From Cenococcum geophilum (lineage: Eukaryota), in assembly GCA_050273025.1 (NCBI GenBank), contig CP158635.1, forward strand, positions 8,866,001 to 8,930,000: 64,000 nt of DNA, read 5' to 3'. Within the stretch, counting starts at the first letter, position 1, and every line of letters begins with the position of its first letter. The notes under the pieces were generated by a model. The model made no database searches. It was not told the origin of the DNA and worked only from the letters and a program-made list of their open reading frames with translations. A program made the position numbers and the translations under genes. Shown piece by piece: positions 22,333-55,947 of this stretch.

Positions 22333-22931
22333 GTGTGTTTGTAAGGTTGGTTTTATTAATCTACTTACTTAGTTAGCGAGTTATTAGTAGGGAATATACT
22401 ATCTTTAAGACTTATAAAGTAATTAACTAAGAATTAAGTCAGTGCCCCTTATCTAAAAAGTATACTTTAACCAGCTAATAATAAGAAGGTTAGCTAGGAA
22501 ACCACTCTTAAAGGCGCAGGAATAGTGTAATTAATAGGCCGGTACGCAGGAATATAATACTATTTAACTTTACTTAATATAGCTTAGAGGAGTATAGAGC
22601 CTTAACCTAAGCTATAGAAATACGTCCTTTAACTAAGCCTTTATTATATAACCTAACTGCTTCTAAGCGCTGCGGCTGTATACCCCGCCACTTACCCTTC
22701 CTAGAACTTTAGAAGTTATACTAGTCCTTAGTTAAGCGACTAATGTTTAAAGCTCTAACTAACTAGCTAAATCCGTCGCAGATTAGATAAAGCTAATAAT
22801 AACTTCTTAATGTATATATAGAGGCTTTAGAGCTATGTTTAATAAAGTAGAGTTCTTATTCTTAATTGTTCTGTTTAATACTAAATTACTCCCTTAAATA
22901 TTGCTTAAGGCGTAGTTAAAACTAGAGAAAT

Positions 22932-23933
22932 ATGCTATCTAAGAGTGTTTTATTTAGCTTAGTGCAGCTTATAGATAGCAAGAAATATAGTAACTTAAAA
23001 CTTATATGCTAGGGGCTAGAGTTTAAAGTCTATAAAGCGATTATATACACCTAATCTCCTATACTTATAGCTGCCTATAATAGAGGCTTTTAGGTAAAAG
23101 CTAACTAAATATCTAGTGGAATTAACCCTAACTAACCAACTAATAGGTAGGAGGTGGCGACTAATATTATAAATATTAACGAGTTTAATTCCGGTACCGT
23201 TAAGCGGATAATCTAATTTATATATAAGAGGGACTATAAGAATAGTAAGGAGGAGTAAGGATTTAATATTGATAATGCTGATGCCTTATCGCTATCTAAA
23301 CTAGATAATAGCGATGGCGATAATAAAGACATAATAATACGGCCGATGACGGCCTATATCACACTTCGTCACGTCTATATTAATGCAATTACTAATTACT
23401 ATAATATACTATAGTTAAAAGAGCTTATAAATATAAAAATCTAATATATTCTAGGAACTAGCTAGTCCGCAAATGGGTTTCCTAATATTATTAAGGATGT
23501 CTTTAGCCTAATAGGCGACTTAGTATTATATAATATAATCACCTTAATAGCGGCTAAGTATATTAAAGAGCTTATTAAACTTAAGGACTTTATAGAGCTA
23601 GACATTATAAGCGATTTCGCTATCAGCATTATATAGATAGCGATTACCGTATCTAAGGACATAGAGGAAATTTTTATACTAAAACTTTAAGCTATCTAAT
23701 CTCAGCTATAACAAATAGAATTACTGCTTTAATCCGCTAAGGCGAGGTATATTGTGGCTGAGCGTAAAAGCGAAAACATTAATAACTGTCTTAATACCTT
23801 TTACATAACTAGAACCTATTATAATATTAGTTATAGAGCCGAGTTTATATATTATATTAAGGATAGTAGTTATCTATCTAACCCTAATTACCCTTATATA
23901 CTTTATTGTAAAAGGTATAAGCGTTATATATAA
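22932..23933 (+). pseudogene. BTB/POZ-domain protein (RIPed)
   Basis: ATG at 22932. RIP-reverted KYSDLKLICQGLEFKVHKAIICTQSPVLTAACDGGFQ, then an intron (~23094-23149), then EVATNIINI.EFDSGTVKRMIQFMY, HVYINAIADYYDIPQLKELA and a Cys-rich C-terminus. Typical fungal BTB protein. Confidence 0.88.
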
Positions 23934-24099
23934 GTAAAGATACATAGCTTAGGAGATTGGCTTAGGTAGGAAGTTATTATATAATACTTCTCTTCCTTTC
24001 TCCGTTTGGGTTGATCTAAGAAATTCGAATATATATCTCGTCTATAGTCGGTCCGTTGGATATTATACAACTGTATTATCTATCTCCTATTAGCCTCCC

Positions 24100-24215
24100 C
24101 TTACTTTACCTCTTACCCTACCCTTTATCTTATCCTTTACCTCACCCTTACCTTTACCCTTACCCTTACCCTTACCTTTACCCTTACCCTCACTCTTACT
24201 TATTACCCCTCGCCC
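24100..24215. repeat. Degenerate (CCCTTA)n hexamer microsatellite
   Basis: taccct/tacctt units repeated about 15 times in the spacer between the convergent BTB and captain 3' ends. Confidence 0.75.
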
Positions 24216-24454
24216 CCCTAAACAAATTATAAAATCCTAGTCATTGTATCTATTCTACTAAATACTAAAATAGGATTGGATAATAATAGACTAAAATAAA
24301 ATAAAAAGTAGTAAAGAATAATAAGATAAGCGCGTAATGACTAGGAAAAGGTCCCATATATAAGGAACGTATAGTTCTAAATTTACTAGTTATATGCCTT
24401 TCTATAGGTACTAGAGGGTTAGTATAGGATTCTCGCATAGGTAAGGCGACTTAC

Positions 24455-24586
24455 CTAGCGGTGCCTCTTAATTAGATGCTATACGCCATGTATAAGGGCT
24501 ACGTAATTTTTAAAATACTTAAGTCCTTTAATCTACTCTAAGCAATAAGAATGCTTATAGTGGAACCCCTACCTAAACACTCCTTC
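24455..24586 (-). pseudogene. Starship captain, C-terminal fragment (segment 3 of 3)
   Basis: Reads EGVFRQGFHCKHSHCSEWIKGLKHFKNHVALVHGVQH after RIP reversion. It joins segment 2 in frame when 24587-32573 and one TC are removed. Confidence 0.85.
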
Positions 24587-24854
24587 CATCAGGAAATTTT
24601 TTTTTGGGCGCGTTGTTGCAAACGAAAATCGGGGTCTACAAAACCTGCGTAAGTCGCAATTTTAGCAATTTGCGGCGATTTGTAGCAATTTGCTACAAAC
24701 ACATAGGCTACCTATACACGCGCCTGCCCTATCTATGTGTTTATAACAAATTACTGCAAATTGCCGCAAATGCTAAAATTGCGACTTACGCCTGCAGGTT
24801 TTGCAGACCCCGATTTTCGCTTACAACAACGTGCCTAAAAAAAAATTCTTAATG
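24587..24854. repeat. 268-bp fold-back palindrome (MITE-like unit with its own two TIRs)
   Basis: ~120-bp arms, e.g. gcaaacgaaaatcggggtctacaaaacctgcgtaagtcgcaattttagc versus gctaaaattgcgacttacg..caggttttgcagaccccgattttcgcttac, around a ~25-bp spacer. Confidence 0.93.
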
Positions 24855-25199
24855 CAGAGGCTCTGCACGAGGCTCTACACAAAGCTCTGCACGAAGGGGG
24901 TCGCAGCTCGGCAAGGTCACGGAAAAGCTCGGCAAGGTCACAAAGTTCAACGGGGTCAGAACTTTAAGTTTGACTTTATGACCCTGCTCAGCTTCCAACC
25001 CCGCCGAGTTTGTGCATATGCAGCGCATATATAAATAAAAAATTTAATATATAGAATTTAAAGTATTTAAAGTATTTAATAAATAACGAATATAATAAAA
25101 CACTTAATATGCATATGCAGAGCATATGCATACCCTAGCTACAGTACAAAATACGCGAGCTAAGTTATTAAAACATGGCCCGTGCATACGCGTCGCATA

Positions 25200-27250
25200 T
25201 CCACAACAACAGCGGTCGCATTATAACTTCTCCACGACACCACCACAGCATACACCACGGGTATGTCCTGCATAACCTATACATAAGCGTTACATATGCT
25301 GACATAGTGCTAGTTAAATTTAACCACTAAACTTTATTCTCGCATACGCCTTACCATAAGCCTCTTAATTATTAATTTTAATAATCCGCAGGTAGCCAGC
25401 GCCAACAACCCTAGCACCTTTAGCTACCACTATAGTAAGCATATGCTTTGTATATACCCACAAGAAGTATATACTAATAGAAGTATATAGGCCTAATCCC
25501 CAACCCTAACCCTAACTGGGTAATACTAGGTTAGTTATAGAGAACGCATATATAAGGTATATACTTATAATAGACAAAGCACGCGCCGCAGCTTTAGTAG
25601 CTAGTGGAAGGTATAAGTAAACCAAGCGCTGTATATCTATAGCATATGCTAACCTTATATAGCCCCAGCTGTGACGGTATAGGACAACGCAAGTAGGTGC
25701 CAGAAGAGCTTGACGTAAAGAGTATGCATATACTAAGCGTAAACTAGATCCACCTAATCCCGCGTCCGTGTTATCTACTGTTAACTCTATAGTGTAGGTT
25801 ATATATCTATACCTTCTATATAGCATATGCTGACAATAAACATAGCTATAATATTGCGGTAAATGGTACGCAGATATGCGGCTGGGTCTTTACCGCCTAG
25901 CCAAGCGTATATTCCGTATATGTATAGCATCTACTTTATCCACTAATATAGTTGTAGTACCGCCGCTATATCTGCAATAAGCACAGTAGTGCCTGTACGT
26001 ATTACCATATAATAGCAGCTAAGGCATACGCTTACTATATGTAGTAACTAACTCTCCTACTACTAATACGTCGGCCGCGGAGCTAATTGCGGGAGAGAAG
26101 TATATGCCTAGTATATGCCACGTATATATAACGCTAATGCAACATAGCGCCCTAAAGTATTTCGTTCTCTCTGGCGGCTAGCGGGATACTAGGTACCTAT
26201 ATAAGCTTAGGTAAATTATACACATGCAATATATATGCAGTACTAACACTAAATATAGCCGTAGCCCTTTAGGGTTGAGGATTACGGAGTATATAGACGC
26301 CTACACTTTAATTATGTATGCTTACTCTATACCTAGCATATACCTAGCCTAAACTAACTAGATACAGTGCCTAAGACTAGGGGTTTGCCGCCCAATATGG
26401 CAGGCAATTCTATCGCGAGGTAAGAGCACTAGTATAGCTTCTGCATATACGCACTATACCCCAATATATCTATCTATCTATATATCTATATACTTATTCC
26501 CCCTAAGTTTAATTTCAGACCTAATAGTACTTATAGGCCTAAGGGTAGCATATATGAGGGATAACTACGGCCACCATTAGGACTACTACCCAATTCGGAA
26601 ACAAATACTTATCTCTATATTTAGGACACTGGCAAAGTCCAACTTTACATAGGCCCTACGCATACGTCACTAATACTACTACTTAGTTATATTGCTAGCT
26701 TATACGCGTATACACTACGTATATGCAAACCCCTAATGTCTTCTACTAACTATAGATCAATACATGCTTATGCTAGGCGTATACTAATATAAGAGAAATA
26801 GCGTGTTGGCCCGTCTACCCCTTCTACCGGCTTAAAGCGCAAGGTTAGTATTTCACCTGTATATATTCAGCATATACTAACTATATACGCAGCGTGGCCT
26901 AACCCCCCCGGGCAACCGCGAGGAGTCTCCCTCGCCGTCCACCCGCCGCCAAAAGGGCAAGTTTTTCTTGCATATACCCTGTATATGCACTACTAATATT
27001 TAGCAGCAGGGGGCAGAAAACTAGCCAGCCGTCGTTATAGTGGTAGTAAGAGCTCCGGTAAGTCTAGTTCCTTCTATTACGTATATTATACTTATACTTT
27101 ATATAAGCTACGGGCGGAACCCGCCAGTTATCCCGCCTCTCCCGTATAATGCGGGAAGCTAGTCTTAAACTTTAAGTCCTAGCATATGCTAGGCCTACAT
27201 ACTGCATACGCAGTGTGCAGTATATATAGTTGGAGTTTTAGTGAAGTTTG
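25200..27250 (+). pseudogene. MULE accessory gene built of micro-exons (unknown product), RIPed
   Basis: A run of GT...CT(A/G)AC/CTAAT...AG introns of ~45-60 bp (e.g. 25261-25307, 25435-25490, 25617-25662) separated by very short exons. No family recognised and limits are approximate. Confidence 0.55.
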
Positions 27251-27379
27251 TTTGGTGGATAGGCTAGGTATATACCTAATATAGGGCACGGGCCAATAGG
27301 CCTATATTAATTAATTCTTTATTTATGGTTATAGAACTCTATATAACATTTGCTATATATATACCTTATATATACACCT

Positions 27380-30300
27380 ATATACTAATACTATACTCCT
27401 ACACCCACTTCTTAAGCTCTACTAGTTCCTTTACTTTATTATATACGTCTTTAGCCTGTTTTAATTTGTTAATTCGTCGCTCCATATTTTCTATATATAG
27501 CGTATATACCTCCTTTTCTAGCTCCTCTATAGATAGGTAAGACCTATACCTCTTGCCCGCAGCCTGGGGTGTTTAACTTTAAGATATTAGTAGTGGCATA
27601 TACGCTATATATACGGTAAACACGCGCAACATATCCAATACTAATACAATATTATTATCTACTATACTTATCTATAATATATTCTATCTACTAAATATAG
27701 TAGGTTTAGGGGTATTAAATAGGTTCTAAGGATTCTAGGGAAGATTTAGCCTAGGATTTCTAGCTCGCCGCTTAGCTGCTTTCCGCTATTTCTACGCTGC
27801 CTAAGCTTAGTATATACTTTATATTTGCATCGCATATATATACATTATTTCCGTAGCTATACTACTATCCGCTTTAAGTCGCAATGATTTTTCTATATAT
27901 TATCTATTCCCGCCTCTTTATATAGCTCTTATATATTAAACATTTCTTATATATAAAGTTTAAGCCTTTACCAAAATATTAGAATATATGGTGCATATAT
28001 AGAGCGTATATATTTACTATAGCACTACGGTAAGCACGCATAACTTTTGACCGGTAAAGTTATTATCTTAAAAGTAACTACTTTTACTAATTCCAGTATA
28101 CTTCCGTGTATATGCCCACTACTTATAAGGGACCTTTAACTTTTCCTTTACAAGCCCGGCTAGTATCCATATTTTCTTCTTATTATTTATCTAAGACGTA
28201 AGCTCCGGATGTAGTGTATATATGCTTTATATACGCGCGATTAGTATCTGCTCTATCTCCGCTTCCTATATCTGCTCTATAATATATCTTACTTTATGAG
28301 TTAGAAAGCGCTTAGTAAAGTTCCGTTTAACGTATACTAGGTAGAATATAAGTATATACTAAAGGTGTTCATCCCATTTACGGGATAGGTCAAGTATATA
28401 TAGGTAGTCCCCAAAGCCTATATATTATAAGCATATACTAGGCGTATGCAAAGCGTATACCTAATATATACTTACCGCCAGCTTATTTCTTATATATATT
28501 AACGGTAGCTATATAAAGTCCGGTTCCGTAAATATATATAAATTGTATAGATAATCGAGCAGTATTACCTAAAACCTTAAACACTAGCTTAAATATCTTT
28601 GCGTACGTAGCACGTGTTTCTAGATTAAGAAAGGCGTATACCCACACCTTGATTCCTATTATTGGTATTAGCGTATATATAGCATATGCGTAGTATAGGG
28701 CATATATACATTTAGAATTCTTATCCTATCCTGTAATTAAGAATAGATTCGTTTTGCCTTAAACTATCTTAAATAATAGGTCCATTTCTATACATATTAC
28801 GCGTTAGAATGCCTTAGCTTACGCGTATATACAATATATAATAAGGAAATACTTGTTATTAAAGTTATAAATTGCCCAAATCTATTACTCGGTATTCTCT
28901 TTATGTTAATTAATAGAGAACTCGCGTAGTATACCTGCTCTACTTAGTCTTTATATATGCTTAGCATATATCTAACCTATACTTACCTATATATACCGTC
29001 CCCTCTGGGAATTATACCATCCTCTCCTTTCTAATTAGAGCAGTAATTTAATCCTTAATATTAAGACTACTATATACTGCACGTAGTGTCTACGCCCTAT
29101 ACTTCCTACATAAAATATAGTACTGCAGTAATAGAATAAATCGACCTATATAATAGTAAGTGTTTTATTCGCATATACTATGCATATACGGGGCATACGT
29201 GTAGTAAGGCTTAGGACTTCCACCTGCCTTATTGCCTCAACTACGTTATTAGCAAGGTCGATTAGTAGCTTTATTAGGTACGGTGGATAATATATATAAG
29301 AATTCCGTATAATAAGGTAAATGTAAGGATATTATATTATATTAATAGGAATATAACAATCTAACTGTGCACCGTATACGCGGCCTACTACCCTACCTTA
29401 GCCTTGCGGGTGGTTAAATCCTATATATGCTTAGTATATGTATAGTATATGCAACATATATATATTACTTACTATAATATTTTCACTTTAATGTTGCATG
29501 TCCAATATAGGTATATTCTCGTTTAATTTCCTAAACTCCATATTTAATAAGTAGACGAAGGTATTGAATATCTACCTAGGCAGTTATCGGTGATAAAGGC
29601 CAGGCAGTATGCCATACTTTAGTATTACTGCTACTGGAATAACTAATAAACTCTACCTGTATATAATAAGCATATATTATATATACGCTGGCTATATGCG
29701 TACTCTATGCTAAAAAAATATCATTAGTCTGCTTTTACTATATACACGTTCTTGTGTACTAGGGTATATACACTACTACCATAATTATAGAATACTATAG
29801 TAGTAGCTGTATATTATAAGCATATGCCTAATATACATAGACGACGCTTACTTCTCTATACTTTGCTTAAGCTTTTTATTAATCTCTACTGCCTAGTATA
29901 GACGACTACTATGCTTTTAGAGGTCGTTAATTAATTTAAGCTTAACCCAATTATATGCTAAGCATATATGGAGTATATCCTTATGGGCGTACTCACAGTG
30001 TCTAATACCGCTATATTTAAATGCTTAATAAAATGCTTTTCCGCTCTCCTAATTATTGGTTTCTCTAAGGAGTTATAGTTATATAATTTTAGCGTTACCA
30101 GTTTAATAGAATAAAAATTAAATCTACTAAAGGTATAAATACGGCATATGCCTAGCATATATATAGCTTACCTTTAACATATACTGCTTAATAATATCGC
30201 GTACTATCTCTTTATCTGCATCTATAGATAGTAAAGGTATTACTTTATAAACAAAATATGCAATTCCTTCTTTTCTAGTTGCTGGATATTCTAGCATTAT

Positions 30301-30690
30301 AATATAGTCTATTACCTCTTAAACAATAACTTAATGCTTACCGTTAAAGCTAATAAGTGCTTTATAGTCTCGGAGTGTGCTTTAGCTATTCTAAGCATAT
30401 ATATAGCCTATATATAGTGTTATACATAGTCTTACCTTAGAGAGACCTATATAAAATAGAAGCCGCTATTATATACTATCTTAATCCTCGCCCTCCTCAG
30501 CTTCCTTATCTTTAATTCTCTCTCTATTAATTATATTATCTTAAAAACTATCGTCTTCGTGTTTAATATTAGGTACGCTCTAGAGTACCTGCGTATACTT
30601 AGTATATGCGTGGCATATAGTGGTACAAACTTACTAGTAAGCCGTTTAGCCACGCTGCTATACTCTTATTTGCTTTAGTATTGTTTTCAG
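27380..30690 (-). pseudogene. MULE-type DDE transposase, at least 11 introns, RIPed
   Basis: Spliced, RIP-reverted reading: HTHYPPYPIKLP; IEMDLSFKMV (D1 ~28780); YAFLNLETRATYAKIFKLVF; HGTGL..ATVDMCKKQAGGFGDYL (D2 ~28499); HILIFCLVHVKRNF (CxxH ~28330-28345); HTGISESSH (E ~28083); coiled-coil tail. Confidence 0.85.
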
Positions 30691-30996
30691 TTATTATTGA
30701 TATAGCGAGGCGCATATAAATGCGCGTTTATATACGTATGTGTATATATGTATGTTTATATATCTATATATCTACGTGTCTGCGTGTCTGCGTGCGTATG
30801 CGTAGCATATGCCCTAGGTATTTGGTTTGTGCGGTCGCTTAAGTTAAATGTGGCTACCGATGCGCGTTCTGTATGGGTAAAAGTGTGACCCCGCCGACCT
30901 TTTGCCGGTGGTTCCATCGGTGACCCCGTTCAACTTTCGCCGACCCCATCGGTGACCTTGTTCAACTTTTCCGTGACCTTGGTCAGCTGCACCCCG

Positions 30997-31115
30997 TGCA
31001 CGAAGCTCTGCACGAAGCTCTACACGAAGCTCTGCACGAAGCTCTACACGAAGCTCTACACGAGGCTCTGCGCGAAGCTCTGCGTGCGGAGGCTCTACAC
31101 GAAGCTCTACACAAA
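30997..31115 (+). repeat. 12-bp minisatellite GCACGAAGCTCT (continues 24855-24896, split by the MULE)
   Basis: Direct tandem units; source of the HEAL/ELRA/TKLC pseudo-ORFs. Confidence 0.95.
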
Positions 31116-31279
31116 GCCTTTGTGTATGCGCGGGACACACTACTATCGGGTCCCCGCTATATTCCCGATAGCCTCGACACGTGCCTCTGCCAAGTATACC
31201 CCTTATATACACCTAGGTAGCCACCTCATTTTTTACCCTTCCTTATATCCTACCTAGGAAGACACTAGAACGACAGCCA

Positions 31280-31565
31280 GCAGACGACCGTCGCCGGAGC
31301 CAGACGACCATCGTCGGAGCTAGATGACCGTCGCCAGAGCTAGACGACCGTCAGAGCCAGACGACCGTCGTCAGAGCTAGACGACCGTCGTTAGAGCTGG
31401 ACGACCGTCGCCGGAGCCAGATGACCGTCGCCAGAGCTAGACGACCGTCAGAGCCAGACGACCGTCGTCAGAGCTAGATGACCGTCGCCAGAGCTAGACG
31501 ACCGTCAGAGCCAGACGACCGTCGTCATCGCCACACGACCGTCGCCAGAGCCACACGACAACCGT
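31280..31565 (+). repeat. 15/18-bp minisatellite GAGC(C/T)AGACGACCGTC(GCC)
   Basis: About 15 tandem units of two lengths, with a higher-order repeat of ~69 bp. Confidence 0.92.
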
Positions 31566-31624
31566 TCGAACGACCAGCCAGCGAACACGATAAACGATTC
31601 GATCGATCGATCGAATCAAGGTAA

Positions 31625-32168
31625 CATAGACAGGTGGGCATAGATAGGTAGGCACAGACAGGTAGGTATAGACGGGTAGGTATAGACGGATGGACAAATA
31701 GGTAGGTAGGTAAGTAGGTAGGTAAATAGGCAGGCAGGTAGGTAGGTAGGCAGGTAGGCAGGCAAGCAGGTAGATAGGCAAATAGGTAGGTAGGTAGGTA
31801 GGTAGGTAAATAAGTAGGTAAATAGGCAGGTAGGCAGGTAAGCAGGCAGGCAGGTAGGTAAATAGGTAGGTAGGTAGGTAGGTAAGTAGGTAGGTAGGCA
31901 GGTAGGTAGGTAGATAGGTAGGTAGGCAGGTAGGTAGGTAGGTAAGTAGGCAGGCAGGTAGGTAGGTAGATAAGTAGGTAGGTAGATAAGTAGGTAGGTA
32001 GGTAGGTAGGTAAATAGGTAGGTAGATAGGTAGGCAGGTAGGTAAGTAGATAGGTAGGTAAGTAGATAAGTAGGTAGGTAAGTAAGTAGGTAGGTAGGTA
32101 GGTAGGTAGGTAGGTAGGTAGGTAGACAGGCAGGCAAGTAGGTAGGTAGGTAGATAGATAGGTAGATA
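31625..32168 (+). repeat. (TAGG/CAGG)n tetranucleotide microsatellite, ~540 bp
   Basis: Visible taggtagg/caggcagg run; source of the PTYL pseudo-ORFs. Confidence 0.97.
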
Positions 32169-32573
32169 ATTTAGAGCCTCTGTAAGAGGCTTCCCCCTTA
32201 ATACCTAAAGTAGATAGCTTTATATTTTATATAGTTATAATATAAATATATTTAAAAGTATACTATAGAAATCTATAGAAATATATAATAATTTGGTTAT
32301 TATATAATATAATTATAATTTATATAGTTACAATTTATATAGTTTTTATAATTTGTATAGTTTGCGCGCTATTTATTTATAGGGTAGCGTTTTACTGCAA
32401 TTTATTTATAGGGGTAGCATTTTGCCGCAATTTGCTATTAGGTGCTGCGATTTTATTATAAAATATGCGTTTTGCGTAAATTGCTATTAACTATATCTAC
32501 CTACCGTAACCGTATAGTTTGCGGCAATTTGCCGCAAACCGCAATAATAAGCCCTAAAAAAAATTTCCTAATA

Positions 32574-33055
32574 TCTATAACGTAATTATTAAGATACTTC
32601 TATAGTGTATCCTTTTTTATAAATAGGCGGGTTTGCCTTAGTATTAAGAGTTAGTTATTGCTAATATAGATAAGATAAATAAGATTAGTAAACGTTATAG
32701 AATACAGCAGCTATATTATCTTAATACCCTCTTCCTTAATTAGGACCACGCTCCGCGTCTTATTTAGGTTTTCTTAAAAAGGCGAGTTTAAGCTAATCTA
32801 TTCTTTCTGCCGCTTTGCCTACTAATAGGTACTAGTATTAGCGTTACTTACACCTCTTTTTACGCCTATTATATTTTAGTCTACTTTAAACCTAAGTTAA
32901 AATTTAATAGCCTTACTTAGGATCCCATTCTACCGACTCTTTTATTAATTATAATACTTAATAAGATTACAGATAAATTTTATATAAAGTTTTATAGCGT
33001 GTCCTTCTTTAAGCTTATTTAGCGGCTAAGATAGTAGTTTAGTAATAGCAGCACG
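32574..33055 (-). pseudogene. Starship captain, segment 2 of 3
   Basis: RIP-reverted ERAAIAKLLSQPLDELKE...FICNLIKYCNQQESR...LICLICIGNDQLS..RQTRPFAKKDTLQKHLDNH. In frame with segment 1 across the Gypsy CACG TSD. Confidence 0.85.
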
Positions 33056-34150
33056 TATTACGGAACCCTACCGCAGGGGCCTCTATAGGAGAGCCCCGTG
33101 CTCTCGCGTATACCTCGCGTACAGCTTATGTCAGCTACGCGTAGGTATATTACCTCTTTACGCCCTTGACCCTTACGATTAATCGCGTAACGTCTTGTAG
33201 ACTCCTTGAATATATACGCTTTATAGCCACTGCCCCCGTCCCATAACATTATATTACGCCTTTTTTACCACTAACGCTTAGCCTACGACCAATTCTACGT
33301 CTCTGTAATACTATAGGCGCTGCTAGAAGCAGCGTATCTACGAATTACCTTACTTTATACTTCCAAGAAACCTATAATAGTAAGACAATATCCCTTACTA
33401 GCTATTATATTAAACCTAAAGAATAATCTAATACCTATACCTAACCTATAACGCTAATTAATCCCAGGAGAATTTAATTTATTAGCCTTAGCCTTAACCC
33501 CTAAGGAGACGGACACCAATAATGTTTTATTTTTTATTAACTATATAACTACAGACAAGCAAATGGAAGGGCTATTATCTATTAAAATTGAAATATGAGA
33601 CGCCGAGACGTTTGTAAAAATGGTAGCATAAGACCCTAATAAATACTACCGCCTTTTATAGAACTATTACCTAAAGCTTATATAAGCCGAGATGCGTGCT
33701 GCCTAAGATCGCGATATTATTCAAGACCTATAAGCTTGTGAGGCGCTTACTAATAACATACGTTAAGAAACTAAAGACGATCTCCGTGTGTCTAAACGCG
33801 ACGTTTAATAGTTAAAGAAGGCTAAGATTACACTAATTGCTACAGTTACTAAAAGAGAAGGCATAATTAAATACCTATAATCTTAGCTTAATGAGCATAT
33901 TTGTAATAACGCCAAACACCTCTTTACTATATATAACGCTACCTAAGTCTCTACGCCCCCGGCAATTTTACCTACTTAATGCTTAACGGAGGGCCAGCGC
34001 TAAGCAGTTTTACCTAACAGGAACCCCTACTAAAGTAGCGACGATAAAAGCTATAATAATTGGACCTAAACTGCTACCGCAGGGTCTAATATACGCTACC
34101 CTGATCCCTTAGTCTTCTAGGGAGACCGTAAGGAATATAGCTACTAGTGT

Positions 34151-35016
34151 GGGAGGGTACGACCCAGTGTGGGTTTGTATAAACCTTATCGCGATAAGAC
34201 GCAATGGATATCCTTATCGCGATAAGGATATCCATTGCGTTTTATCGCGATAAGTCTTGGCATACCCCAAATAAATTTTTAGTCGCCTTCCTCCTCTTTA
34301 TTACTATATATAATATAGTTTTAGAAGTAAAATTAGACGCTCTCAACTCTATTAATACCTCTAAATCGAAAAATATAAGAGGTTTATTAGCTCTTTAATA
34401 TAGAATACCCGTCCACTAGGCAGTAGTATAGTTTTAGATAAATCTAATCACAATAAGTCTTAGCATACCCTAAATAATTTTTTAGTCGCCTTCTTTATTA
34501 TTATTATATAAAAAGAACTAATTTAAACCTAGTAAATAAAGTTATATTATCCTTTTTTTCTAAATTTTAGTAAGTGGCTCTATATATGGCTCTACATCCG
34601 GCTCTGCGCAGGAAGCTCTGCATACGGAGGCTCCGCACGAAGCTCTACACGAAGCTTTGCACGAAGCTCTGCACGAAGCTCTGCACGAAGCTCTGCACGA
34701 AGCTCTGCACGAAGCTCTGCACGAAGCTCTACACGAAGCTTTGTACGAAGTTCCGCACGAAGCTCCGCACGAAGCTCCGCACGAAGCTCTGCACAAAGCT
34801 CTGCACGAAGCTCTGCACGAAGCTCTGTATACAAAAGCTCTGCACGACGGCTCTGCGTACGACGGTTCTGTGCTATTCTGCTTGGTTGGGGTAGAAAAGC
34901 CCCGCACAGGGCACTTTATCCTTATCGATTGCAATATTTTATGCATTTTCTATTGGATAAGGATATTTTATGCTCGCTTATTCGCATTATCCAAAACCAC
35001 ACTGGTACGACCTCTC
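34151..35016. mobile_element. 866-bp non-autonomous TIR element (MULE-like ends) carrying the 12-bp minisatellite
   Basis: Left GGGAGGGTACGACCCAGTGTGGGTTTGTATAA versus reverse-complemented right GAGAGGTCGTACCAGTGTGGTTTTGGATAA. Three subterminal TTATCGCGATAA palindromes at 34185-34254. No TSD found. Confidence 0.65.
34600..34860 (+). repeat. 12-bp minisatellite GCACGAAGCTCT, ~20 units, nearly un-RIPed
   Basis: Direct tandem units of the same sequence as at 30997 and 55085. Confidence 0.96.
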
Positions 35017-38000
35017 TAAGATAGGAAAGTCTCAGTGCTGTCTGTCAGTCGGTTCATCTGTCAGTCGGTCGGTCAGTCAGTCGGTCGGTCACTATCAGTC
35101 AGAATTAAGCAGTAAGAAGAGAAAGAAAAGAGTGTATTGAAGGAAAATTGTGTGTCTGTCGGTCTCGCCCGAGTTGTTGAAGACTCTGAAGACTCTAGAC
35201 CGATCTATATAACTTGTGGAAGGCCTGGGCTCTCCCGAAGCTATGCCCAATCTAGATGTTGAATCCTGGGGCCAAATCACACCACCACACTAGAAGATGC
35301 AAATCTGTAAGAAACTAACTTAGAGCGCCTACCTTTTTCCTATAGAAGATACTAAGATTAGCTATATTATCGGGTGAATAAAGGGTACACCGTTTAATAG
35401 ACTCTTCGCCTAATAGGAGACTAGTGGCCCCTAGAAGTGGTAGTCCCACTAAGAAGTTCTTGACGATCTTAACCTAATGTACTATAACCACGACCTACTG
35501 GCCACCAACTGAGCTAAACTATGTGCCCTAAAGATGAGCCCTACCGAATTATTTGACGAATTCTATATTAAATTCTAGGAATATACCGGAGCCCTCGCCT
35601 AAGATAATACTAAAGACTAGGAGGACCTCCTTAAAAAAGTTACTTATTGCCTTAGTTACATAGCCGCCAGCTATAACTATAATAATGTTTATAATATAGT
35701 AGCAGCTCTATAGAAGATCGAATAATAACTAAATTAGATTGCTACTACTAACCCTTACCTAAAGACCTCCCTATAGAAGCCCCCCGGGCCTACTAAACCT
35801 ATATATACTAAGCTACCAACGCCTACTACCTTAAGTACTACCGGAACTAATATCAATTTCTCTATACTAACCTTTCTATAGAAACTCCTAGATAGAGAGC
35901 GCGAGCTACTCTAGAAACTAGGATGCTGCTATAGATACTATTAAGAAGGCTATTATTATAATAACCTAAACTGCCTAATGGCTAGGTTTAGTAGCCGCCG
36001 CCTAATACCTAACCTAATACCCTAAACACTAAATACGTTGCTATATACTACTACCGTATAAAATAAAGACGTAGTAATAGCGGTAGAGTTAGATACGGAA
36101 ACGGAAAACGCTAAGTCCTAGCCCTAAGTCATGGGTTAGGACGCCCTAATAATGGAGGGATCTATATATTGGCTTACTTAATAGATAACTTTATAAAGAT
36201 AAATAGACGGAAATAGATAGTTTTACCTATAATAGGAACTACTGCTAAAAAATAATATAAAGGCCGTTTTATAATTAATTACGGAGCTACTAATAAATTT
36301 ATAGATACCTAATTTATATATACTTATAACCTACCTACCTTACCCCTTACCAAAGCCCACGCCCTATAACTCGCTAACGGTAATTATACTACATAGAAGA
36401 TTACCTATATGGCATAACTCCACCTAGATATAAATAGGCATTAGGAAAAACTCTAGGCCTATATAATACTACTTGCTAACTACCCTATTATCCTTAAAAT
36501 AAACTAGCTTAAATAATACAACCCCACCATTAACTGGAAGAAGAGAGAAGTAACCTTTAACTCTAAATACTGCAGAGAGACTTACCTAGGGCATAGCCTA
36601 GCCGCCTCTATTTACTCCCTAGGATATTAACCTAAGAAACCTCTTATTACCCCACCTACGACCAACTACTACTACGTAAGTGCCCTAGCCTTCTACCGCA
36701 TAACATAAAAGAAAGGCTAGACCGTTACTATAGCTTCCCGATCACAACTATATAAGCTTAATAAAAAATAGGACTACGTCCTCTATAGTAATAGAATAAA
36801 TATAGTCGACCTTTTAAAAGATAATACCCCTATAAAACTCTACGGACTTTTACCTTTAGACTTTAAGAAGTTTATAAAGCTTAAAAAAGGACTTACCAAT
36901 AAAGAACTCTGTAAGCTTCTCCCTAAGAGGTACTACAACTTTACTAATATATGCTTACAAAAGAGCGTAGATATACTCCCCCCACATTAACCTAATAACT
37001 ATGCCATTAATATTAAATAAGGAAAAATGCCACCTTATAAGAGACCCTACCTAATATTAAAAGATAAGCTTCTAGTTGTAAAAAAGTATATTAACGAGCA
37101 CCTTAATAAAGGATTTATTTATCCTAGCATATCACCAGTAGCTGCCCCTATTCTTCTCGCTAAGAAGCTAAAAGAAGGTATCTAATTCTACATTAACTAT
37201 AGAGGACTTAACGCTATTATAATTAAAAACTGATACCCAGTACCGCTTATACATAAGACCCTTAAGCGGCTTAGTTAAGCTAAAATCTATACTAAGCTTA
37301 ATATTATTGCCGCCTTTAACTATCTTTAAATACAGGAAGGTGATAAATAGAAAACCGCATTTACATTACGCTTCAGCCAATTTAAATATACCGTTATACC
37401 CTTTAGCGTATGTAACGGCCTAGGTACCTTCTAAAGCTATATTAATAACGCCTTATAGGACTACCTTAATGACTTCTGCTCTGCGTACCTGGACAATATA
37501 CTTATTTATAGTAATAACCCCTTTAAGTATACCGAATATGTTTAAAAGGTTTTATAGCGCCTTAGGGACGCAGGAATTTATATTAATTTAAAGAAATGTA
37601 AATTCTTAGTTATAGAAGTAAAATACCTTAAACTAATTATTACTACTAAGGGTGTCCATATGGACCCTGAGAAGGTATATATAATTACTAAATAGTAAGC
37701 CCCTAACTGCATTAAGGATGTACAAGCCTTCCTTAGTTTTGCTAACTTCTATTAGAAATTCATATATAACTTCTTAGGCGTAGTAGCACTACTTATAGTA
37801 ATAATGCGAACGAAGGGCCTTTTTATAAAAGGAAGAAAAACGTACTTATGCTTTACCTGGACGCCTAAATACGAGAAGGCGTTCTAAGACCTTAAAAATG
37901 CCTTTACTAAAGCACCTGTCCTAGCTCACTTTATACTAGGACGATAACTCTACCTTAAAACTGACTCCTTAGATTATATTAACACAGGCGTCCTCTTTTA

Positions 38001-40564
38001 GATAGGTAATAACGGTCTCCTTTACCTAGTTATATTCTACTCGTCTAAGCTTATACTATAAGAGTGTAACTACAAGATCTATAATAAAGAACTCCTTATA
38101 ATTGTACGAGTGTTTAAAGAATTCTAATTAGAACTCTCCTTAGTAGAGCCTAACCAGCTAACTAAAGTCCTTATGGACTATCGCAATCTTAAGTACTTTA
38201 TAACTATGAAGCAGCTAAACCAATGCTAAGTATATTGGAACGAGTTCCTCTCTGGTTTTAACTTTAAAATTATATATAGACTAGGAGTATAAGGTACTAA
38301 ACCTAATAGCCTAATACGCCGCTTGTAAGATCTTCCTTAGTCTAAAAATAACCCTTATAATTAGTTCCAATAATAGACAATCCTAAAAGTATGAAATTTA
38401 GCCCTAGGTATACTATTTATAATAGAGCTAATTATACCCTAGCTTTATACTATAGAACTAGAGTTACCTCCCAAAATTAATAAGCTTATTACTATGGCAT
38501 ATAACGCCTCTGTTAACCTATTACTATATTAACTTATCGCCGTAAAGACCGCTAGCGCCTATACGCTGCCTACTAACCTCTAAAGCTTAGGCTAGATTAA
38601 TATAGCAGCCTTAAAAGTAAAAGAGAACAGACTCTATTATAGAGGCCGCCTATTTATCCCTAACTTAGAAAATTTATAACGGCAACTAATCTAAATAGCC
38701 TATAATCTTTAATTAAGCGGCCACCTAGGTAAAGGAGGAACCTATAAGCTTCTTAGCCGATACTACTTTTGGCCAAAAATAATAGACTTAGTTGAACACT
38801 TTATAGGCGCCTATTATAGTTATAAGCGCGCTAAGGCCTTTAATATAAAGTACTAAGGACTACTATACCCTCTACTAGTACCTATATAATAATGGGCAGA
38901 TATTGCTATAGATTTTATTGTTAATCTACCACCCTATAAATAACACGGCCGTACCTATAAGAACATCCTTATAATAATATACCGACTTATAAAAGAGCGC
39001 CACTACGTTCTAACCGAAGGTGTAGCCGTTAGCGACGTTACTAACGCCTTCTTCTGTAAAGTTTACTAACTATATAGGCTACCTAACTCAATTACGTCCG
39101 ACTAAGGCATATAATTTAACTCTGATATATAGAGACGAATCTACTAACGCCTTGGTATCTCCGTTAAGATATTTATATCCTTCTATTATAAAACTGCTAG
39201 GTAACCGGAAAACGCTAATGCCAGTATAAAAGTGTACCTATGATAGGTAGTTGCCTATAGTTAAGATAACTAGGTGGATTACCTCCTACTAGGTAAATTT
39301 ATAGCGAATAACTATGTCTTAACTACTATAGGACTTACCCCGTTCTTTGCGAATAAGGGTTATTACCCCTAATCTGGTATAGAGCTACTAGAACCTATTA
39401 ATAAGAAACTGCTATATAGAAAACGCCTTAAGATGCTACTTGCTAACTAGCATGTAGACTATATAAAAAATCTACTTAACTACTATAAGGGAGAAATGGC
39501 CTGGGCTTAAGTAAAGTAGGCTTACTTTACTAATTGTTATAGAACGCTACTACCAAAGATACGTGTTAGCGACTGGGTATAGCTAGATATACGCAATATC
39601 TTTACGTAGAGGCCTATAAAGTCACTTAATTATAAGAACCTTGGCCCCTATCTAATTAAACGAGTTATTAATAGGGGAGCCGTATATAAGCTAGAACTCT
39701 TACCTGCCCTAGCTACCCGTGGGATATAGCCTATATTTTACCTATAGCTACTATACCTCTATTAGCCTAACCCCTTACTAGGGCAGATATAGCCTAAACC
39801 CCTACTAGTACTAATCCGAGATAAGAACAAAGATAAGAACTATAAGGAGTGGACTGTTAAACAAATTATTAACTCTAAATACTTTGGCAAAGGTAAAGGA
39901 CGACGGCTTTACTACAGAGCTATATATATAGGATTTAATATAGATTAGCTAGAATGGCAATTATAGGAAGACTTCAAAAATGCAAAGGATCTAATTAGCG
40001 ACTTTTACTACGCGAACCTATAGAAACCGGGCCTAAGCAGAGACTTTATACCTAATCCTCTATAGGAGCCCTTATAGAGTTAAACCGTTATATATTGCCA
40101 CGTAAGGGCAAATTACCGTTAGATTGCCGTTAGATTGCAGTAAAGTGCGATCATGTAACTGGAATATTGTTGAGATGTCTAGGAACTTTAACCGGCGGTT
40201 AAAGTTATCTAATTAGTTGGATTCTTAGATGCCAAACCCTATTATATAACATTATTTTAAGCCTTTAGCAATACCCCCCTTTTCTTCTTTTCTATACCTT
40301 AAGTGTCTCTTCTATATATATATAGTAACCACAGCGTTGCCGGAGCTCCGCCTCTATAAGAGGGGGGGTAGTGTTATAGAACCCTACCGCAGGGGCCTCT
40401 ATAGGAGAGCCCCGTGCTCTTGCGTATACCTCGCGTACAGCTTATGTCAGCTACGCGTAGGTATATCACCTCCTTACGCCCTTAACTTTTACGATTGATT
40501 GCGTAACGTCTTGTAGACTCCTTAAATACATACGCTTTGTAGCTACTACCCCTGTCCCGTAACA

Positions 40565-42473
40565 CACGTTTATAAAATTTATACTATAGAGCTAAACAGG
40601 TAGGAATTTCCGTCCTAACGCTACTACTAAGCTATCTTTTAATATTATAATCGTTAATAGCGTTATAAAAATTAAGAATAACCTAGTCCTCTTTTTATTT
40701 ATATAGGACGTTTATAACACTATAAAGTTTACGTCTAGCTTTATTATAACGGTTATATAGTTTTATTCCCTTTGCGGTGTTAATAGGGTAATATCCCTAG
40801 CTCCTAATCTTTTACTTATATCGCTCTTATTTCTCGCAAAGCTGTAGAATATTAGGGCGTTAATTAAGTTTTAGCTGGAATTTAAGCTTTTACTCGTTAG
40901 TTAGACCTATAGGGGCCCGCTTATCCCTTAAGATCCCCATTTATACGGCATATTAGATAAGGTTGTCCTATAATAGAGTCCTAAAGTAAATTAACTAGAA
41001 ATCGCGCTTAATTAAATTAGGTAAATAAAACCGCTAGTAGGTATTACCGTAATAACCTATTATCTAATTTCGCTCTTCTAAAGTAAGGGTGCCTAAAAAA
41101 CTTAGTTAATATATGCACTTATATTAAATTAAATACTTACTATTTAATTTCCTTCTAGACACTCGTTGCAGCTAATAAAGTTTAAGCGATTTTTTAAACC
41201 TAGCTACTTAGCCTAACTATACGTAGTAATTACGGCATTTCTAGTAAGGGAATGCTTTGGTGTCCGACACTCCCTTATAACTAGCCATTATCTTAATATC
41301 TTAAAAGATAGGTCGTTTCTCTATTTCCTTCTTAAACTTTACTTTAAGACTCTTTTTTTTTACTAGGATTTTAAGTCTAAAAATCTCTTCCGGTAAAGTG
41401 TAACGGCGTTAAAATATATTATCCGCAATAGCAAGGCTTATAAGATGGGATAGGATATAAAAAGCTAGGATACTTTTAAGACGGAAAATAAACCTCTTAC
41501 TATAGGTCTATTAGCACCATTCGCGCCATTTTTAATTAACGTTGCTATATACCGTCTGCCTATGCCTCTAGAATTCTTAATATATATAAGACTTACGAGG
41601 GCAATAGTTATAGTTTAATTAAAGTTTTTTATATCGCGAACTCTTAGGATTATAATATGTTTATATAAAAGCGCTTTATTAGAGCCTCTTACGCTTAAAC
41701 TTTTAATAAAAGCTTAGGGTCTTATTGCCGTGGCACTAAAGAGAAGGATTGCTCCTATCTATACTCAAAAATAACTATAGTAAGGCTTCGCGTCTATTGT
41801 TTAATAGGCATTAATAATTATATACAAGTCCTGTATATATATAGCATCCTTTTCTTTCTCTAACGTGTCTAGCTTATATATTAGTATTAAGTAGGTTAGG
41901 ATCCACTATAATAAATTAGCTAGGATTTTTTTAAAAAATTTAAGATTACCTATATCTTGTATATTAAGTTCTGCGCTATTATTTATACTATGGCCTACTA
42001 CATTTATAAATTTATATAGTATTCATCTCCAGTATAATTAGATTATACTTTTCTTCTTAATTTAAGAATTTTTTACGCGCTATTTAAGGTATATTTTAAA
42101 CGTGTTAGGCATACACTAATAAAGAGCCTTAGTTAGGTTAGACTTAACTTTTAGGTAGAACCTAAATATAAATTATTAGTATTATAAGGTGAATTTTAAT
42201 TTAAATATAAACGAACTTTTTTTAATTCTAAAACTTATGCTGAATAAGAGAAGTAAACTAGGGCTTCTATTTTAACTTTGCCCTTTCTTAGTCCTTATAA
42301 TACGCAATCCTCTACTATAAATATTCCCCCTTAGAATTGGCGTCTTCCCTAGCTCTAGAGTTAGAGCTTAAATCTAAGTCTAAAGCTAGCTTAGAATAAG
42401 ATGGCTTGCCTAGTTTAGAGTCTAAGCTAGAGGCTAGATCTATATTTCGCCATTTCTTACTTTAAGAGGGTAT
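40565..42473 (-). pseudogene. Starship captain, DUF3435 tyrosine recombinase (segment 1 of 3), RIPed
   Basis: RIP-reverted, spliced reading: FKIYLKWRV...STIQSYWR...YKLDTSEKEK...LLFSATATRPRAFIES...ALLYKHI...LISLAIADNIF...LGQVAGFEKSLELYQLQRVSGRKLN..TLEERNQIMGHYGNTYQRFYLP.LIKRDFQSIYFG...SRDKRAPIGLT. These are the catalytic R, YxxRR, MGH and Y motif positions of DUF3435. Confidence 0.92.
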
Positions 42474-45400
42474 AGTAGTTAAACGCGTAATATCTTAGTG
42501 CTTTAGTAGCTACCAGTTACCTATACGTAAAAGCTAGCTTAAGAGCGACTGCTATTAATAGGAACGCTAAAAAAGGCTCTATAGAAGATCGGCGTTTTTA
42601 AGAGCGGGATAGGGCAAAAAAATCCCATGGGTAGAAACCTAGAAATTAAGTATTAAAAGTAAAAGACATAATAGTAGGGAAAAATGCATATATAGCTACT
42701 GTGGGAAAAGGGTTAAAGGAGCGTAGTGCAGAAGGGAGGTTTTATCGTGTAAGGGTAGTGCTTTTAGCAAAGGATAAGGATAAAGGTAGGCGGCGGACGT
42801 CTATGGCTTTTTAAATAACGTTAGCCGCCGAGGGACGTTTGGGGAGCTTCTAGGTTTGGTAAGTAAGTAAGGGAGACCCTGCTGTCCTTGGCATACTTAG
42901 CATGTTGTAAAAGCGGCGACAGATATGGGTTTAAGCGAGGAGAAACAGCCTCCTAAAACGGGGGGGAGGAGCCTCTAAATCCGGCTGCGTCTTCCCCAAT
43001 AACAAGATTCTAGAAGGGATAATAATATACTATAAGGAACAAAAGAATGTTTAATTAAGAGTTTTGCGTTTTATTATAATAACGTATACTAAATTTATAA
43101 GGATGCTAAGTATAGCGTAAGCTATTAGCTATAGGAGCCAAAATTATTAAAGTTTAAAGGAACTAATAAACTAGTTTAAACTACTTTAGTACTTAATAAA
43201 GGTAAAAGGCCATAAGCTTGAGATTTTTAAGACGAGATATAAGATAACTAAGATTCTTAAGATAAGATAAGGTAAGCTTAAGGACCTATAATAGATAATA
43301 ACCAATAGAGTAAAGCAATGGCTTAGTTTAGTAATATATAAATAAGCTTAGGACGAAGTTTTCTAAAAGTATAAGACTCTTAAGACGAGATAAGTAAGAT
43401 TTAAGACTTTTAAAACGAGATAAGAATACTAAGAAAGCCTAGTTAAACTAAGGTTAGAGTAAAGCTTAAGATAGAAGCAAGCTTAGGATTAAGAATCCTA
43501 TAGGACTAAGATTTTAGTAATAGAATAAGGACTATTAAAGAAATTGCGAGTAAGGCTTAGTAATAGGATTAAAATGTTAATACTATAATTAAGAAGTAAG
43601 AGAACTTTAAGGATCTACTTATAAGACGTAAACTAAAAAAAACTATAGAAGAATTTAGATAAAGAATTATTATATAGTAAGAATAGAAACTAGATAAGAG
43701 ATCTAGTATATTAGGTTATATAAGGGATAGAGCACCTATATAAAGAATTACTAATAAGCTTAGGGTAGGTATACTAAGAGCTAAGTAGCTTACTAAACTA
43801 AAAAATAAAGAGGATTTAGGGATCCCTATTAGGTTTAAAGAACGATATATAAAGGGCTGTTATAATATAGTAATAAGAAGATACTTCCTTACGGATAAGC
43901 CGTATATACTCTAGTAGCTATACCAAAAATAGTATAGGCAAAGGTATAACGATAAGTGGGAAGATTTCTATATATAGTTAGATAAATAAGTTATCTAGGA
44001 CCACCCAATTATAGAGAAGGCTATAGCTTATATTAAAGAAACCTTAATTATAACATTAAAGGATCTAGAGGAATTATTAGAGGACTAGAGAAGTAAGAGA
44101 TATATCTTAATACCTATAAATAAAGTTATAACGTTTAGATTAACGTGTTAAAGGTTTAAACTTAAAGATAAAGATAAGTTAAAAGTTAACCTAAAGCACC
44201 TAGTATACTATACGCTATTATGGATTATATATATAGACAATATATATAAGATATACAGAAATCTAAAAGAAAAGAATTGGAAGTACCCTATAAGGATATA
44301 TTAGGCGCTAGATAAGTAATAGTATAGAAATACTAAATATATATATAGATAGCATCTAATAAAAGTTTAAGAGTTAGAAAACTTAATACTTTAATTAAAA
44401 AGATTCCTTATAGAAGAATGCTTAGACGGATAATAGTAGTAGGAATACCTAGAGAATACGTGTTTATAGTATATTAAAGATAAAAAGCGAATTAAGTATT
44501 AGCTAAAAAGTAAGCTAAGTGTAATAAGATTAAGCAGCTAATAGTTAGGAAAAGTAGAGGCCTATAAAACTAAAGAGAGCTAATAATAGAGCCTTAAACC
44601 CTTAAAGGAATTTAAGAATAATACCTAAATTTATAAGTTAATTAGTAAGACTAACAGTTTAAAGTACTAATAGATAGTGGAGTAATACGGAACTATATCT
44701 TACTAGTAATAGTTAAAAGAATAAAATTACCTTACAGATAAAAGGAATAATCTTACCTATTAGTTATAATTTTAGGAGATCTAATAGCCTATAGAGGAGG
44801 GATTATTAATCTTAAAATAGGACCTATTTAAATAACTATTAAAGGAAGATGAATTAAGATATCTTTTAATATCCTACTATTAGGATAGGATAAGGTAGTA
44901 TTAGAAATACCTTAGTTATAGGAATATAATCTAAGGATTAATTAGATTACAGGTTAGGTTAATATTAGAAATACTTAACGCCGTAAGATATAATAGTAAA
45001 CTAAGTTAATATAGTACTAAGTTAGAGCGATATATAAAGAGACTAAGTAAGGCTTAAGTTATATATTAAAAAGATACTATAAGTATAGTAAGAAACTATA
45101 GAGCCTAAAAAGTAAAAAGCTAGTAAATTATATAGTATAGGACTATAAAATAGAGTTAGAACTAGAAATAAGTCTAGGGTTCTTTCTAACCTATAAGCTT
45201 ACTAAAGAAGAGTTAAAAGCACTTAAAGAGTTTATCTAAGAGAACTTATAAAAGGGATATATTAGACTATTATAGTTATTAGCAGGTTATCTAATACTGT
45301 TTATACTAAAGAAGAATAGAAAACTTAAATTATGCATTAACTATAGGCAGTTAAATAGTATTACTTAAAAGGATAGGTACTCTTTACCCTTAATTAGCGA

Positions 45401-46603
45401 AATCTAAAATTAGATAGGTAATGCGCAAATCTTTATAAAGATAGATCTAAGATAGGCGTACTATTAGATTAGAATTAAGGAAGGTAATAAATAAAAGACA
45501 GCCTTTAGATTAAGAGAAGGACTATATAAGCTATTAGTTATGCAATTTGGGTTAATAAATATACTAGTAATATTTTAGAAATAAATTAATAGTATATTAG
45601 GAGAATACCTTAATAAGTTTGTTATAGTATACCTTAATAACATTATTATCTACTTAATAACTAAGGGAGAGTATAGAGAACATGTTAAATAGGTCTTAAA
45701 GAGACTATAGAAAGAATAGATGCTAGTAGCAATTAAGAAATACGAGTTCTTTATAGGGAAGACCGATTTTATTAGATTTATTATTAAACTAGGTTATATT
45801 AGTATGGACCTAAAGAAAATTAAAGCTATAGTAAGTTAGTAAGAATTAGAGAATATAATATAGTTAAGGTTATTTTTAGGGTTTTGCAACTACTATAGAA
45901 GGTTTATAGCATAATGGTTAAAGAATATTAAACTATTTACTAGGCTTATAAAGAAAAAGGAACTATAGGTATAGGGAAATAAGTAAAGAAAGCTGTTTAA
46001 AGAACTTAAAAAGCTGTTTACTTAGGAGCTAATCCTTAAGATCTACTAACTAGGACTAGACACGGTTATAAAAATAGATGTATTAAACTATATACTAAGA
46101 GTATGCTTACTATAGAAGTATAAGGACGTATAGCATCCAGTATTATATTATAGTAGAAAGATAATACTACTAGAGTTAAACTATAACATCTATAATAAGG
46201 AGTTATTAGGTATAGTTACAGCATTTAAAAAATAGAAAGCATTCTTATAAGGCGTAGAGAAACTATTTATAGTTAAGATAAATTATAAGAACCTAATAGG
46301 GTTTCTAATAATAAAATAACTTAATTAAAGATAAGTTAAATAGGTAGAGATGCTTACAGAATACTATTTTAAGATTTAGTATACTAAAGGAACTAAGAAT
46401 ATAAGGGTAGACATACTTAGTAGAAAAGCTAAACTATAGAATAATAAGAAGCTATTAAAAGCAATACTATATAGAGATAAGGATGGATAAATTAGATATA
46501 ATTACCCTAAGCTAGTAGTAACTTAAGAGGATAATAAACTAGAAAAAGTCTACGAGATACTAGAGAGCTTTTGGATATAGAGAATTCTAAAAGTATAGCT
46601 AAA

Positions 46604-55945: not shown

Positions 55946-55947
55946 TA

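Follow-up and report, generated by a model that had tools for sequence, protein, structure and literature searches.

The question raised by this locus is whether it holds the remains of a Starship element and, if so, how much of one. The window, meaning the whole stretch of 64,000 nucleotides (nt) analysed here, comes from Cenococcum geophilum (assembly GCA_050273025.1, contig CP158635.1, positions 8,866,001 to 8,930,000 of the forward strand), and all coordinates given without a contig name refer to it. An initial annotation had proposed that three pieces between 24455 and 43012 form a hidden, minus-strand DUF3435 recombinase gene of the kind known as a Starship 'captain', and that the left 43 kb of the window are a dead Starship. 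The captain is supported, and the 43-kb Starship is unproven. The locus is probably a copy, inactivated by repeat-induced point mutation (RIP), of the 5' 'captain module' of a Starship family of the Serenity/Sanctuary type. New here are the exact 5' edge at position 43012 beside a Sanctuary-type ATWHCT hexamer, the multi-copy nature of the unit and its shared core of about 3.5 kb.

Reassembly, identity and inactivation of the captain gene

The pieces 40569..43012, 32576..33055 and 24455..24586 become one minus-strand gene once the segments 33056-40564 and 24587-32573 are taken out together with a single copy of each target duplication, which leaves 2532, 480 and 132 nt in the same phase. Homologous proteins aligned to the window by tblastn respect both joins: residues 546-696 of P0001 (738 amino acids, Coniosporium apollinis) match 33055-32615 with an E-value of 7.8e-11, starting exactly at the join, and P0004 matches 33055-32903 with residues 165-215 and 24586-24458 with residues 315-357, again exactly at the joins. 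The reassembled read-through, with stop codons written as X, aligned with P0001 over 661 residues (39% identity, E 8e-139) across the first join, with P0151 across both joins (371 residues, E 2e-73) and with P0007 over 473 residues at 32% identity in spite of RIP (E 2e-71). In two metagenome contigs the three pieces are uninterrupted, at 86-88% identity in L004 (where piece 2 lies at 2615-2133) and at 80-85% in L008. Contigs of about 200 nt with paralogues mixed, taken from the Logan assemblies of four sequencing runs (X1, the probable source strain, X6, X7 and X14), lead directly from 24584 to 32574 in seven, one, one and four cases, respectively; contigs of all four runs also skip from about 33050 to 40570, and rows of two, three and two X1 contigs bridge this latter join. 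More than one distinct contig spans each join even in X1, and uninterrupted paralogues therefore exist. The homologue alignments, the metagenome contigs and the run contigs across the joins together confirm the reassembly, with the three pieces and both excisions as initially placed; the single continuous frame did not hold, being broken by a probable 53-nt intron at 41552-41500. The absence of the gene from the list of open reading frames (ORFs) was correctly noted, as no stop-free frame of at least 80 codons overlaps any of the three pieces.

At about 40623-41471 the Pfam profile DUF3435 (PF11917) scored 80.8 bits (cut-off 25.8; E 1.3e-22), the match covering positions 99-364 of its 418, so that the search suggested in the initial annotation bears out its domain call. 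An exhaustive HMMER search with piece 1, stops as X, gave 185 library proteins at E ≤ 0.001, 62 at ≤ 1e-10 and seven at ≤ 1e-30, the best being P0001; a word-indexed homologue search with the stop-as-X reading gave no matches. The motif positions ..TAIRP.., ERNxI.G., ..TYxxFY.. and RDKRAP are still recognisable. At the level of sequence similarity, the assignment of the gene to the DUF3435 tyrosine recombinases of the Starship-captain kind is supported.

Piece 1 (40569..43012, minus strand) holds the 5' edge of the element, an upstream region, the N-terminal exons and most of the DUF3435 core, as judged from Pfam, tblastn and homology to L004 and L008. The first homologue-backed coding position is 42473 (P0075 on 42473-42297), and placement of the start codon is not settled; the right limit of 43012 given at the outset is thus a real boundary, that of the element, and not the first codon. 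Residues 68-255 of P0001 match 42160-41552 and residues 256-535 match 41498-40590, so that residues 255 and 256 lie 53 nt apart in different frames, which places the probable frame-shifting intron (41500..41552, minus strand, GTATAT...CTAAT...TAG, with splice signals identified by reading). Two further in-frame gaps of 48 nt relative to the homologues are probably introns as well. Piece 2 (32576..33055, minus strand) encoded a linker past the recombinase core, as indicated by the P0001 match, the alignments through the join and L004. Piece 3 (24455..24586, minus strand) carries the relic of a C2H2-like finger followed by the stop codon at 24457-24455; besides the tblastn match of P0004, it aligns with the C-x4-C...H...H tails of P0151 and P0007, in agreement with the finger first read there, and UniRef gives P0007, P0048 and P0145 the name 'C2H2-type domain-containing'. 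These alignments support an ancestral gene, interrupted by introns, that would have encoded a recombinase of about 0.8 to 1 thousand amino acids with a C2H2-like DNA-binding finger at its C-terminus.

The read-through contains 75 stops in 1048 codons, and the 710 aligned codons contain 50. Judged by an open frame and intact catalytic residues, the gene is not an active recombinase; it is dead. The module has a TpA/ApT index of 1.68 and a (CpA+TpG)/(ApC+GpT) index of 0.42, the window as a whole is AT-rich (GC 0.25-0.45), and the copy in the window differs from L004 by 374 transitions and 30 transversions and from L008 by 425 transitions and 31 transversions; the run contigs have the same bias (C/T, G/A). 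By this mutational signature the gene is a RIP-killed one. The differences are almost all transitions, and the copies were therefore about 99% alike before RIP. At any single position of the three pieces and of the 1 kb past the stop codon, each of the four runs yielded 13 to 36 distinct contigs of at least 85% likeness, only distinct contigs being counted. The captain module is present in tens of copies.

Regarding family placement, P0007 is KAF2845010.1 of Plenodomus tracheiphilus, listed as a 'tyr' gene of fam04 in starfish supplement S3/S4, P0079 (OAT11875.1) is listed as fam03 and P0041 as 'n.d.'; six other homologue accessions have no entry in the supplement, and labels are thus available for these three proteins. 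Family 4 is Serenity, of clade 1 (Table 1 of PMC11162782), and is reported always to lie in regions rich in transposable elements (PMC11162782). In a quick maximum-likelihood tree of 24 rows (the window and 23 proteins picked for length among the 150 matches listed), with the Shimodaira-Hasegawa-like approximate likelihood ratio test (SH-aLRT) as the measure of branch support, the window joined P0001 (SH-aLRT 96) and then P0005 and P0007 (100), and the fam03 protein P0079 fell in another clade. The nearest labelled relative is thereby supported as a member of starfish family 4, Serenity. The phylogenetic placement proposed earlier was in this way obtained in part: the gene groups with the sole sequence labelled fam04 in a quick tree of 24 rows, as against 1222 sequences in the starfish reference set.

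The gene resembles Serenity captains such as KAF2845010.1 (Gluck-Thaler and Vogan 2024, PMC11162782) in its DUF3435 core, its C2H2-like tail, its clade in the tree and its setting in a transposon island, and differs from them in being dead, split and present in tens of copies, with no cargo or full boundaries defined. P. tracheiphilus itself is listed with 13 captains and 0 elements (PMC11162782). A compact multi-copy element with a tyrosine recombinase and no long terminal repeats (LTRs) would work in the manner of the Cryptons, which serve as the outgroup in PMC11162782; unlike these, the protein from the window matches Pfam DUF3435 and captains labelled in the starfish set.

The 5' edge, the target site and the shared module

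The window and L008 become alike abruptly at YYTAGAATCTTGTTATTGG, position 43012, with different sequences on the outer side. Two copies in different flanks thus support 43012 as the true 5' edge of the element, and the captain reads inward, away from it. In the window the captain module sits inside a Gypsy-like retroelement: the 5' flank is a truncated copy A (43013..46601, resuming at 52665-54045, plus strand) whose 5' side is cut exactly at the captain edge, as seen by comparison with an inverted copy B (63642-58262). The labels Gypsy-like here and Copia-like below are motif readings of translations. In L008 the 5' flank is another repeat, family Z, which is uninterrupted in the contigs L014 and L011. 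Directly before the break point the uninterrupted targets read ATTCCT and ATAACT. Both fit the consensus ATWHCT, for which a rough estimate puts chance at well under one in a thousand, and a 6-bp ATWHCT repeat is reported immediately upstream of the 5' edge of Sanctuary in Bipolaris sorokiniana (10.1101/2024.03.04.583430).

The sequence upstream of the break in copy A is present in copy B, in L011, in L007 and in 49 X1 contigs. Within the window, a search for the other half of this Gypsy-like target (a 30-mer with up to 8 mismatches, blastn with 358 nt and a probe from L011) found only copy B. Whether the upstream part of copy B is an LTR was tested against the 3' ends of both copies; with identities of 50-53% the idea gained no support. 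No sequence in the window was found to match the 153 nt of the 5' terminus in inverted orientation.

On the other side, the module common to all three compared copies (window, L004 and L008) measures 3497 nt with the two later insertions removed. It closes with a 441-nt tail (24014..24454, minus strand), defined by homology to L004 and L008 and ending in GAATTTCTTAGAT (24014-24026, minus strand). L008 diverges from the window at 24014, right after this motif and 441 nt past the stop codon. The motif mimics the 5' junction, an ATWHCT-type hexamer followed by TAGA, and reads ATTTCT+TAGAT. The next 9.4 kb of L008 have nothing in common with the left side of the window, and contain neither an LTR pair nor a match to other loci; the other half of family Z is absent from the 12.9 kb of L008. 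What follows on the 3' side of the two independent copies (window, L008) is in neither case the missing half of the interrupted target.

Next to the tail lies a RIP-killed relic of a BTB/POZ gene (22709..23913, plus strand), convergent with the captain and part of a dispersed repeat (Pfam BTB, E 0.052; homology to L004 and L020). Its paralogue in L020 matched the Pfam profile with E 4e-4 and 21.0 bits, above the cut-off of 20.5. Copies of the BTB unit were located at 22709-23913 in the window, 2611-3948 in L004 and 18480-19801 in L020. In two of the three (window and L004) the BTB gene stands tail-to-tail with the captain; in L020 it is convergent with another, distantly related captain relic, which it follows 6.3 kb downstream. 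Distinct contigs numbered 24 at position 23799 and 28 at 24058. The BTB/POZ relic is the only candidate for cargo. With P0151 as a single query no relative was found among the metagenome contigs; the alignment query did find relatives.

Later insertions and the remainder of the window

The captain gene is split by two elements. The LTR retroelement at 33056..40564 has 194-nt LTRs (33055-33248 and 40371-40564, 91% alike), ends T(G>A)TTACGG...CCGTAACA and the target duplication CACG, read in the sequence on the right at 40565..40568 and on the left at 33052-33055; it is of very high copy, with the highest depth bins, and is skipped by the run contigs described above. The 8-kb element with terminal inverted repeats (TIRs) at 24587..32573 ends in CATCAGGAAATTTTTTTTTGGGC and the reverse complement TATTAGGAAATTTTTTTTAGGGC, is flanked by TC on both sides and is likewise skipped by contigs from 24584 to 32574. 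At its left end lies a small inverted-repeat unit (24595-24847, arms 24595-24648 and 24794-24847), and tandem repeats occur within the element. A shorter relative of 2.1 kb is found at 54073-56178, its ends corresponding to the TIR element's (24598-24888 to 56178-55914) and its tandem-repeat tail likewise (31014-32514 to 55189-54073). A 12-nt minisatellite (GAAGCTCTGCAC-like) occurs in the LTR element (34591-34866), the TIR element (30978-31128) and the shorter relative (55077-55940), and read contigs join the three places to one another.

Further left, two more later insertions are LTR retroelement B (16422..22332, 373-nt LTRs, GTGTG duplication) and LTR retroelement A (5870..11495, 188-nt LTRs, GCTAT duplication). 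Four later elements, three of the LTR type and one of the TIR type, are thus confirmed in the left 43 kb, where at least seven had been counted before. Six-frame Pfam scans of the 12.9 kb outside LTR retroelements A and B (22335-24457, 11496-16421 and 1-5869) detected the BTB relic, a weak Zn_clus match and nothing else; domains of transposases, of reverse transcriptases or of Starship accessory proteins, including DUF3723, ferric-reductase, patatin and NLR, were absent from the results. The Zn_clus match, a Zn(2)-Cys(6) signal at 15625-15723 (plus strand), has an E-value of 0.004, is below threshold and lies in otherwise unrecognisable RIPped DNA. Other contigs repeat parts of the left side, without a consistent orientation.

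To the right of the captain edge, an LTR element at 46604-52670 is nested in Gypsy-like copy A. It has 176-nt LTRs that are 93% alike, a GC content of 0.35-0.39 and long open Copia-like stretches of integrase and reverse transcriptase, is much less mutated than its surroundings, and may have inserted recently, once RIP had already taken place. Between the inverted Gypsy-like copies lies a palindromic arrangement of about 700 nt (56868-57150 against 57153-57563), which matches the L011/L007 region in both orientations. The contigs L004, L007, L008, L011, L014 and L020, all from soil- or plant-associated metagenomes, are RIPped transposon nests with the repeat families of the window at 77-88% identity, which places this fungus, or one closely related to it, in the sampled material.

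Extent and origin of the captain element

The dead 43-kb Starship proposed at first retains its captain at a true 5' edge; the window offers no 3' boundary or target half to go with it and the 12.9 kb scanned no accessory domain, and its extent is not shown, though not refuted either, given that the second copy, L008, shares nothing past 441 nt after the stop codon and that the module exists in tens of copies. A larger form of this idea, in which a giant derelict Starship runs from 43012 past the left end of the window, its cargo erased by RIP and no fewer than four later transposon insertions, is possible, if rather unlikely. It would account for the other half of the Gypsy-like target being nowhere in the left 43 kb, as a simple insertion would then end beyond position 1, and likewise for the missing half of family Z in L008. 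Beyond the divergence point of L008, the likeness of the window and L004 also continues for at least 800 nt and reaches the BTB gene, the BTB unit recurs 6.3 kb downstream of the other captain relic in L020, and Sanctuary relatives are described as sharing little past the captain and the edges (10.1101/2024.03.04.583430). The lack of a 3' edge in the window and of any accessory domain in the 12.9 kb scanned speaks against it, the latter all the more as the equally RIPped captain scored E 1e-22; so do the 9.4 kb downstream in L008, unlike the left side of the window, and the left-side pieces, which behave as dispersed repeats. Tens of copies would, moreover, mean tens of giant elements. At the other extreme stands a captain-only transposon of about 3.5 kb (43012 to 24014), amplified in the manner of ordinary transposons and with mere flank as its neighbouring DNA. 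That just 3497 nt are common to all three copies, that the divergence point (ATTTCT+TAGAT) mimics the 5' junction (ATWHCT followed by YYTAGAAT), that tens of copies were near-identical before RIP and that an engineered element of captain plus edges is mobile (Urquhart et al., cited in 10.1101/2024.03.04.583430) all favour such a unit, yet it is judged unlikely: the 3' flank is not the continuation of the target, being neither family Z in L008 nor the Gypsy-like element in the window, the window and L004 have a 3' flank in common, and the comparison covers two independent insertions. As the 3' flank does not continue the target, the compact and the giant model each leave something unexplained. 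A longer element reduced to its 5' fragment, its body and 3' end deleted or rearranged away amid the nested transposons and with unrelated DNA to its left, would explain why copy A of the Gypsy-like element is missing its 5' part, with no partner half present, and it would suit both the abundance of nested, truncated elements in the window and the many captain pseudogenes expected by the starfish authors (PMC11162782); random deletion would not be expected to leave independent copies with one and the same break, at 24014 and beside an att-like motif, and this explanation too is doubtful.

Several points weigh against the preferred reading of a RIP-inactivated 5' captain module of the Serenity/Sanctuary type. 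Neither a 3' end nor a direct-repeat pair nor a typical accessory gene came to light in the left 43 kb, nor was an empty site seen, and what places the unit among the Starships is its captain together with the 5' edge. Tens of copies contrast with the few copies that a Starship should have (PMC11162782), which is an expectation and not a definition. Logan depths and contig counts are not copy numbers. The placement in Serenity comes from one fam04 and one fam03 sequence in a quick tree in which the row of the window was flagged for odd composition. The hexamer of the window itself is ATCCCT, a five-in-six fit to ATWHCT, and the likeness to Sanctuary is one of edge features and of captain position. 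Leftward the element could stop with the 3.5-kb module, take in the BTB gene or reach past the left end of the window. A Starship carries cargo beyond the captain, with a length of at least 15 kb in the starfish screen, and the starfish authors describe Serenity-family elements as the hardest Starships to delimit, lying as they do in transposon islands (PMC11162782).

Under the preferred reading of an inactivated captain module, a live recombinase would have joined the end of the element to a short core in AT-rich, transposon-derived DNA, in a Cre-like manner and via a circular intermediate. Multiplication of the module would then have triggered RIP and the killing of all copies, and the LTR element and the 8-kb TIR element would have landed later in the dead copy. 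The locus resembles Sanctuary (PMC12506042; 10.1101/2024.03.04.583430) in a captain that comes first near the 5' edge, in the ATWHCT hexamer and in relatives sharing little past captain and edges, and contrasts with it in that Sanctuary is intact, low-copy, 47-plus kb long and equipped with NLR, patatin and ferric-reductase genes and an ATACCT 3' repeat, none of these being found in the window. Derelict Starships degraded by RIP, a term of PMC11162782 applied for instance to the derelict Horizon of P. nodorum, are alike in having a RIP-mutated, transposon-invaded and non-functional captain locus; the published derelicts were recognised by synteny with an intact element, and no intact copy is known for the family in the window. 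Literature searches on RIP-dead, multi-copy or captain-only Starships turned up no description of a multi-copy, RIP-killed captain module of the Serenity type.

A more speculative proposal is that the 3.5-kb unit is a natural, self-sufficient 'mini-Starship', with a Serenity-type captain and two att-like ends (ATWHCT + YYTAGAAT at the 5' end, ATTTCT + TAGAT at the 3' end), amplified to tens of copies, its 3' att-like site being a recombination point that takes up downstream DNA such as the BTB gene. The proposal is tentative and, as matters stand, improbable; the term 'Mini-Starship' in the Sanctuary preprint refers to natural elements of 47.5-72.7 kb and to the engineered construct (10.1101/2024.03.04.583430). 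If true, it would provide a snapshot of Starships gaining and swapping cargo.

The locus itself is a genomic fossil of a known kind, and ORF-based annotation misses such genes wholly in RIPped isochores. The family to which it belongs, multi-copy and dated by RIP, offers many parallel copies, an exactly placed 5' edge, a hexamer like that of Sanctuary and a candidate att-like site, either internal or at the 3' end. Comparing these copies across the whole genome could define the ends and the target rule of the family, and could reveal whether captain-only units spread alone.

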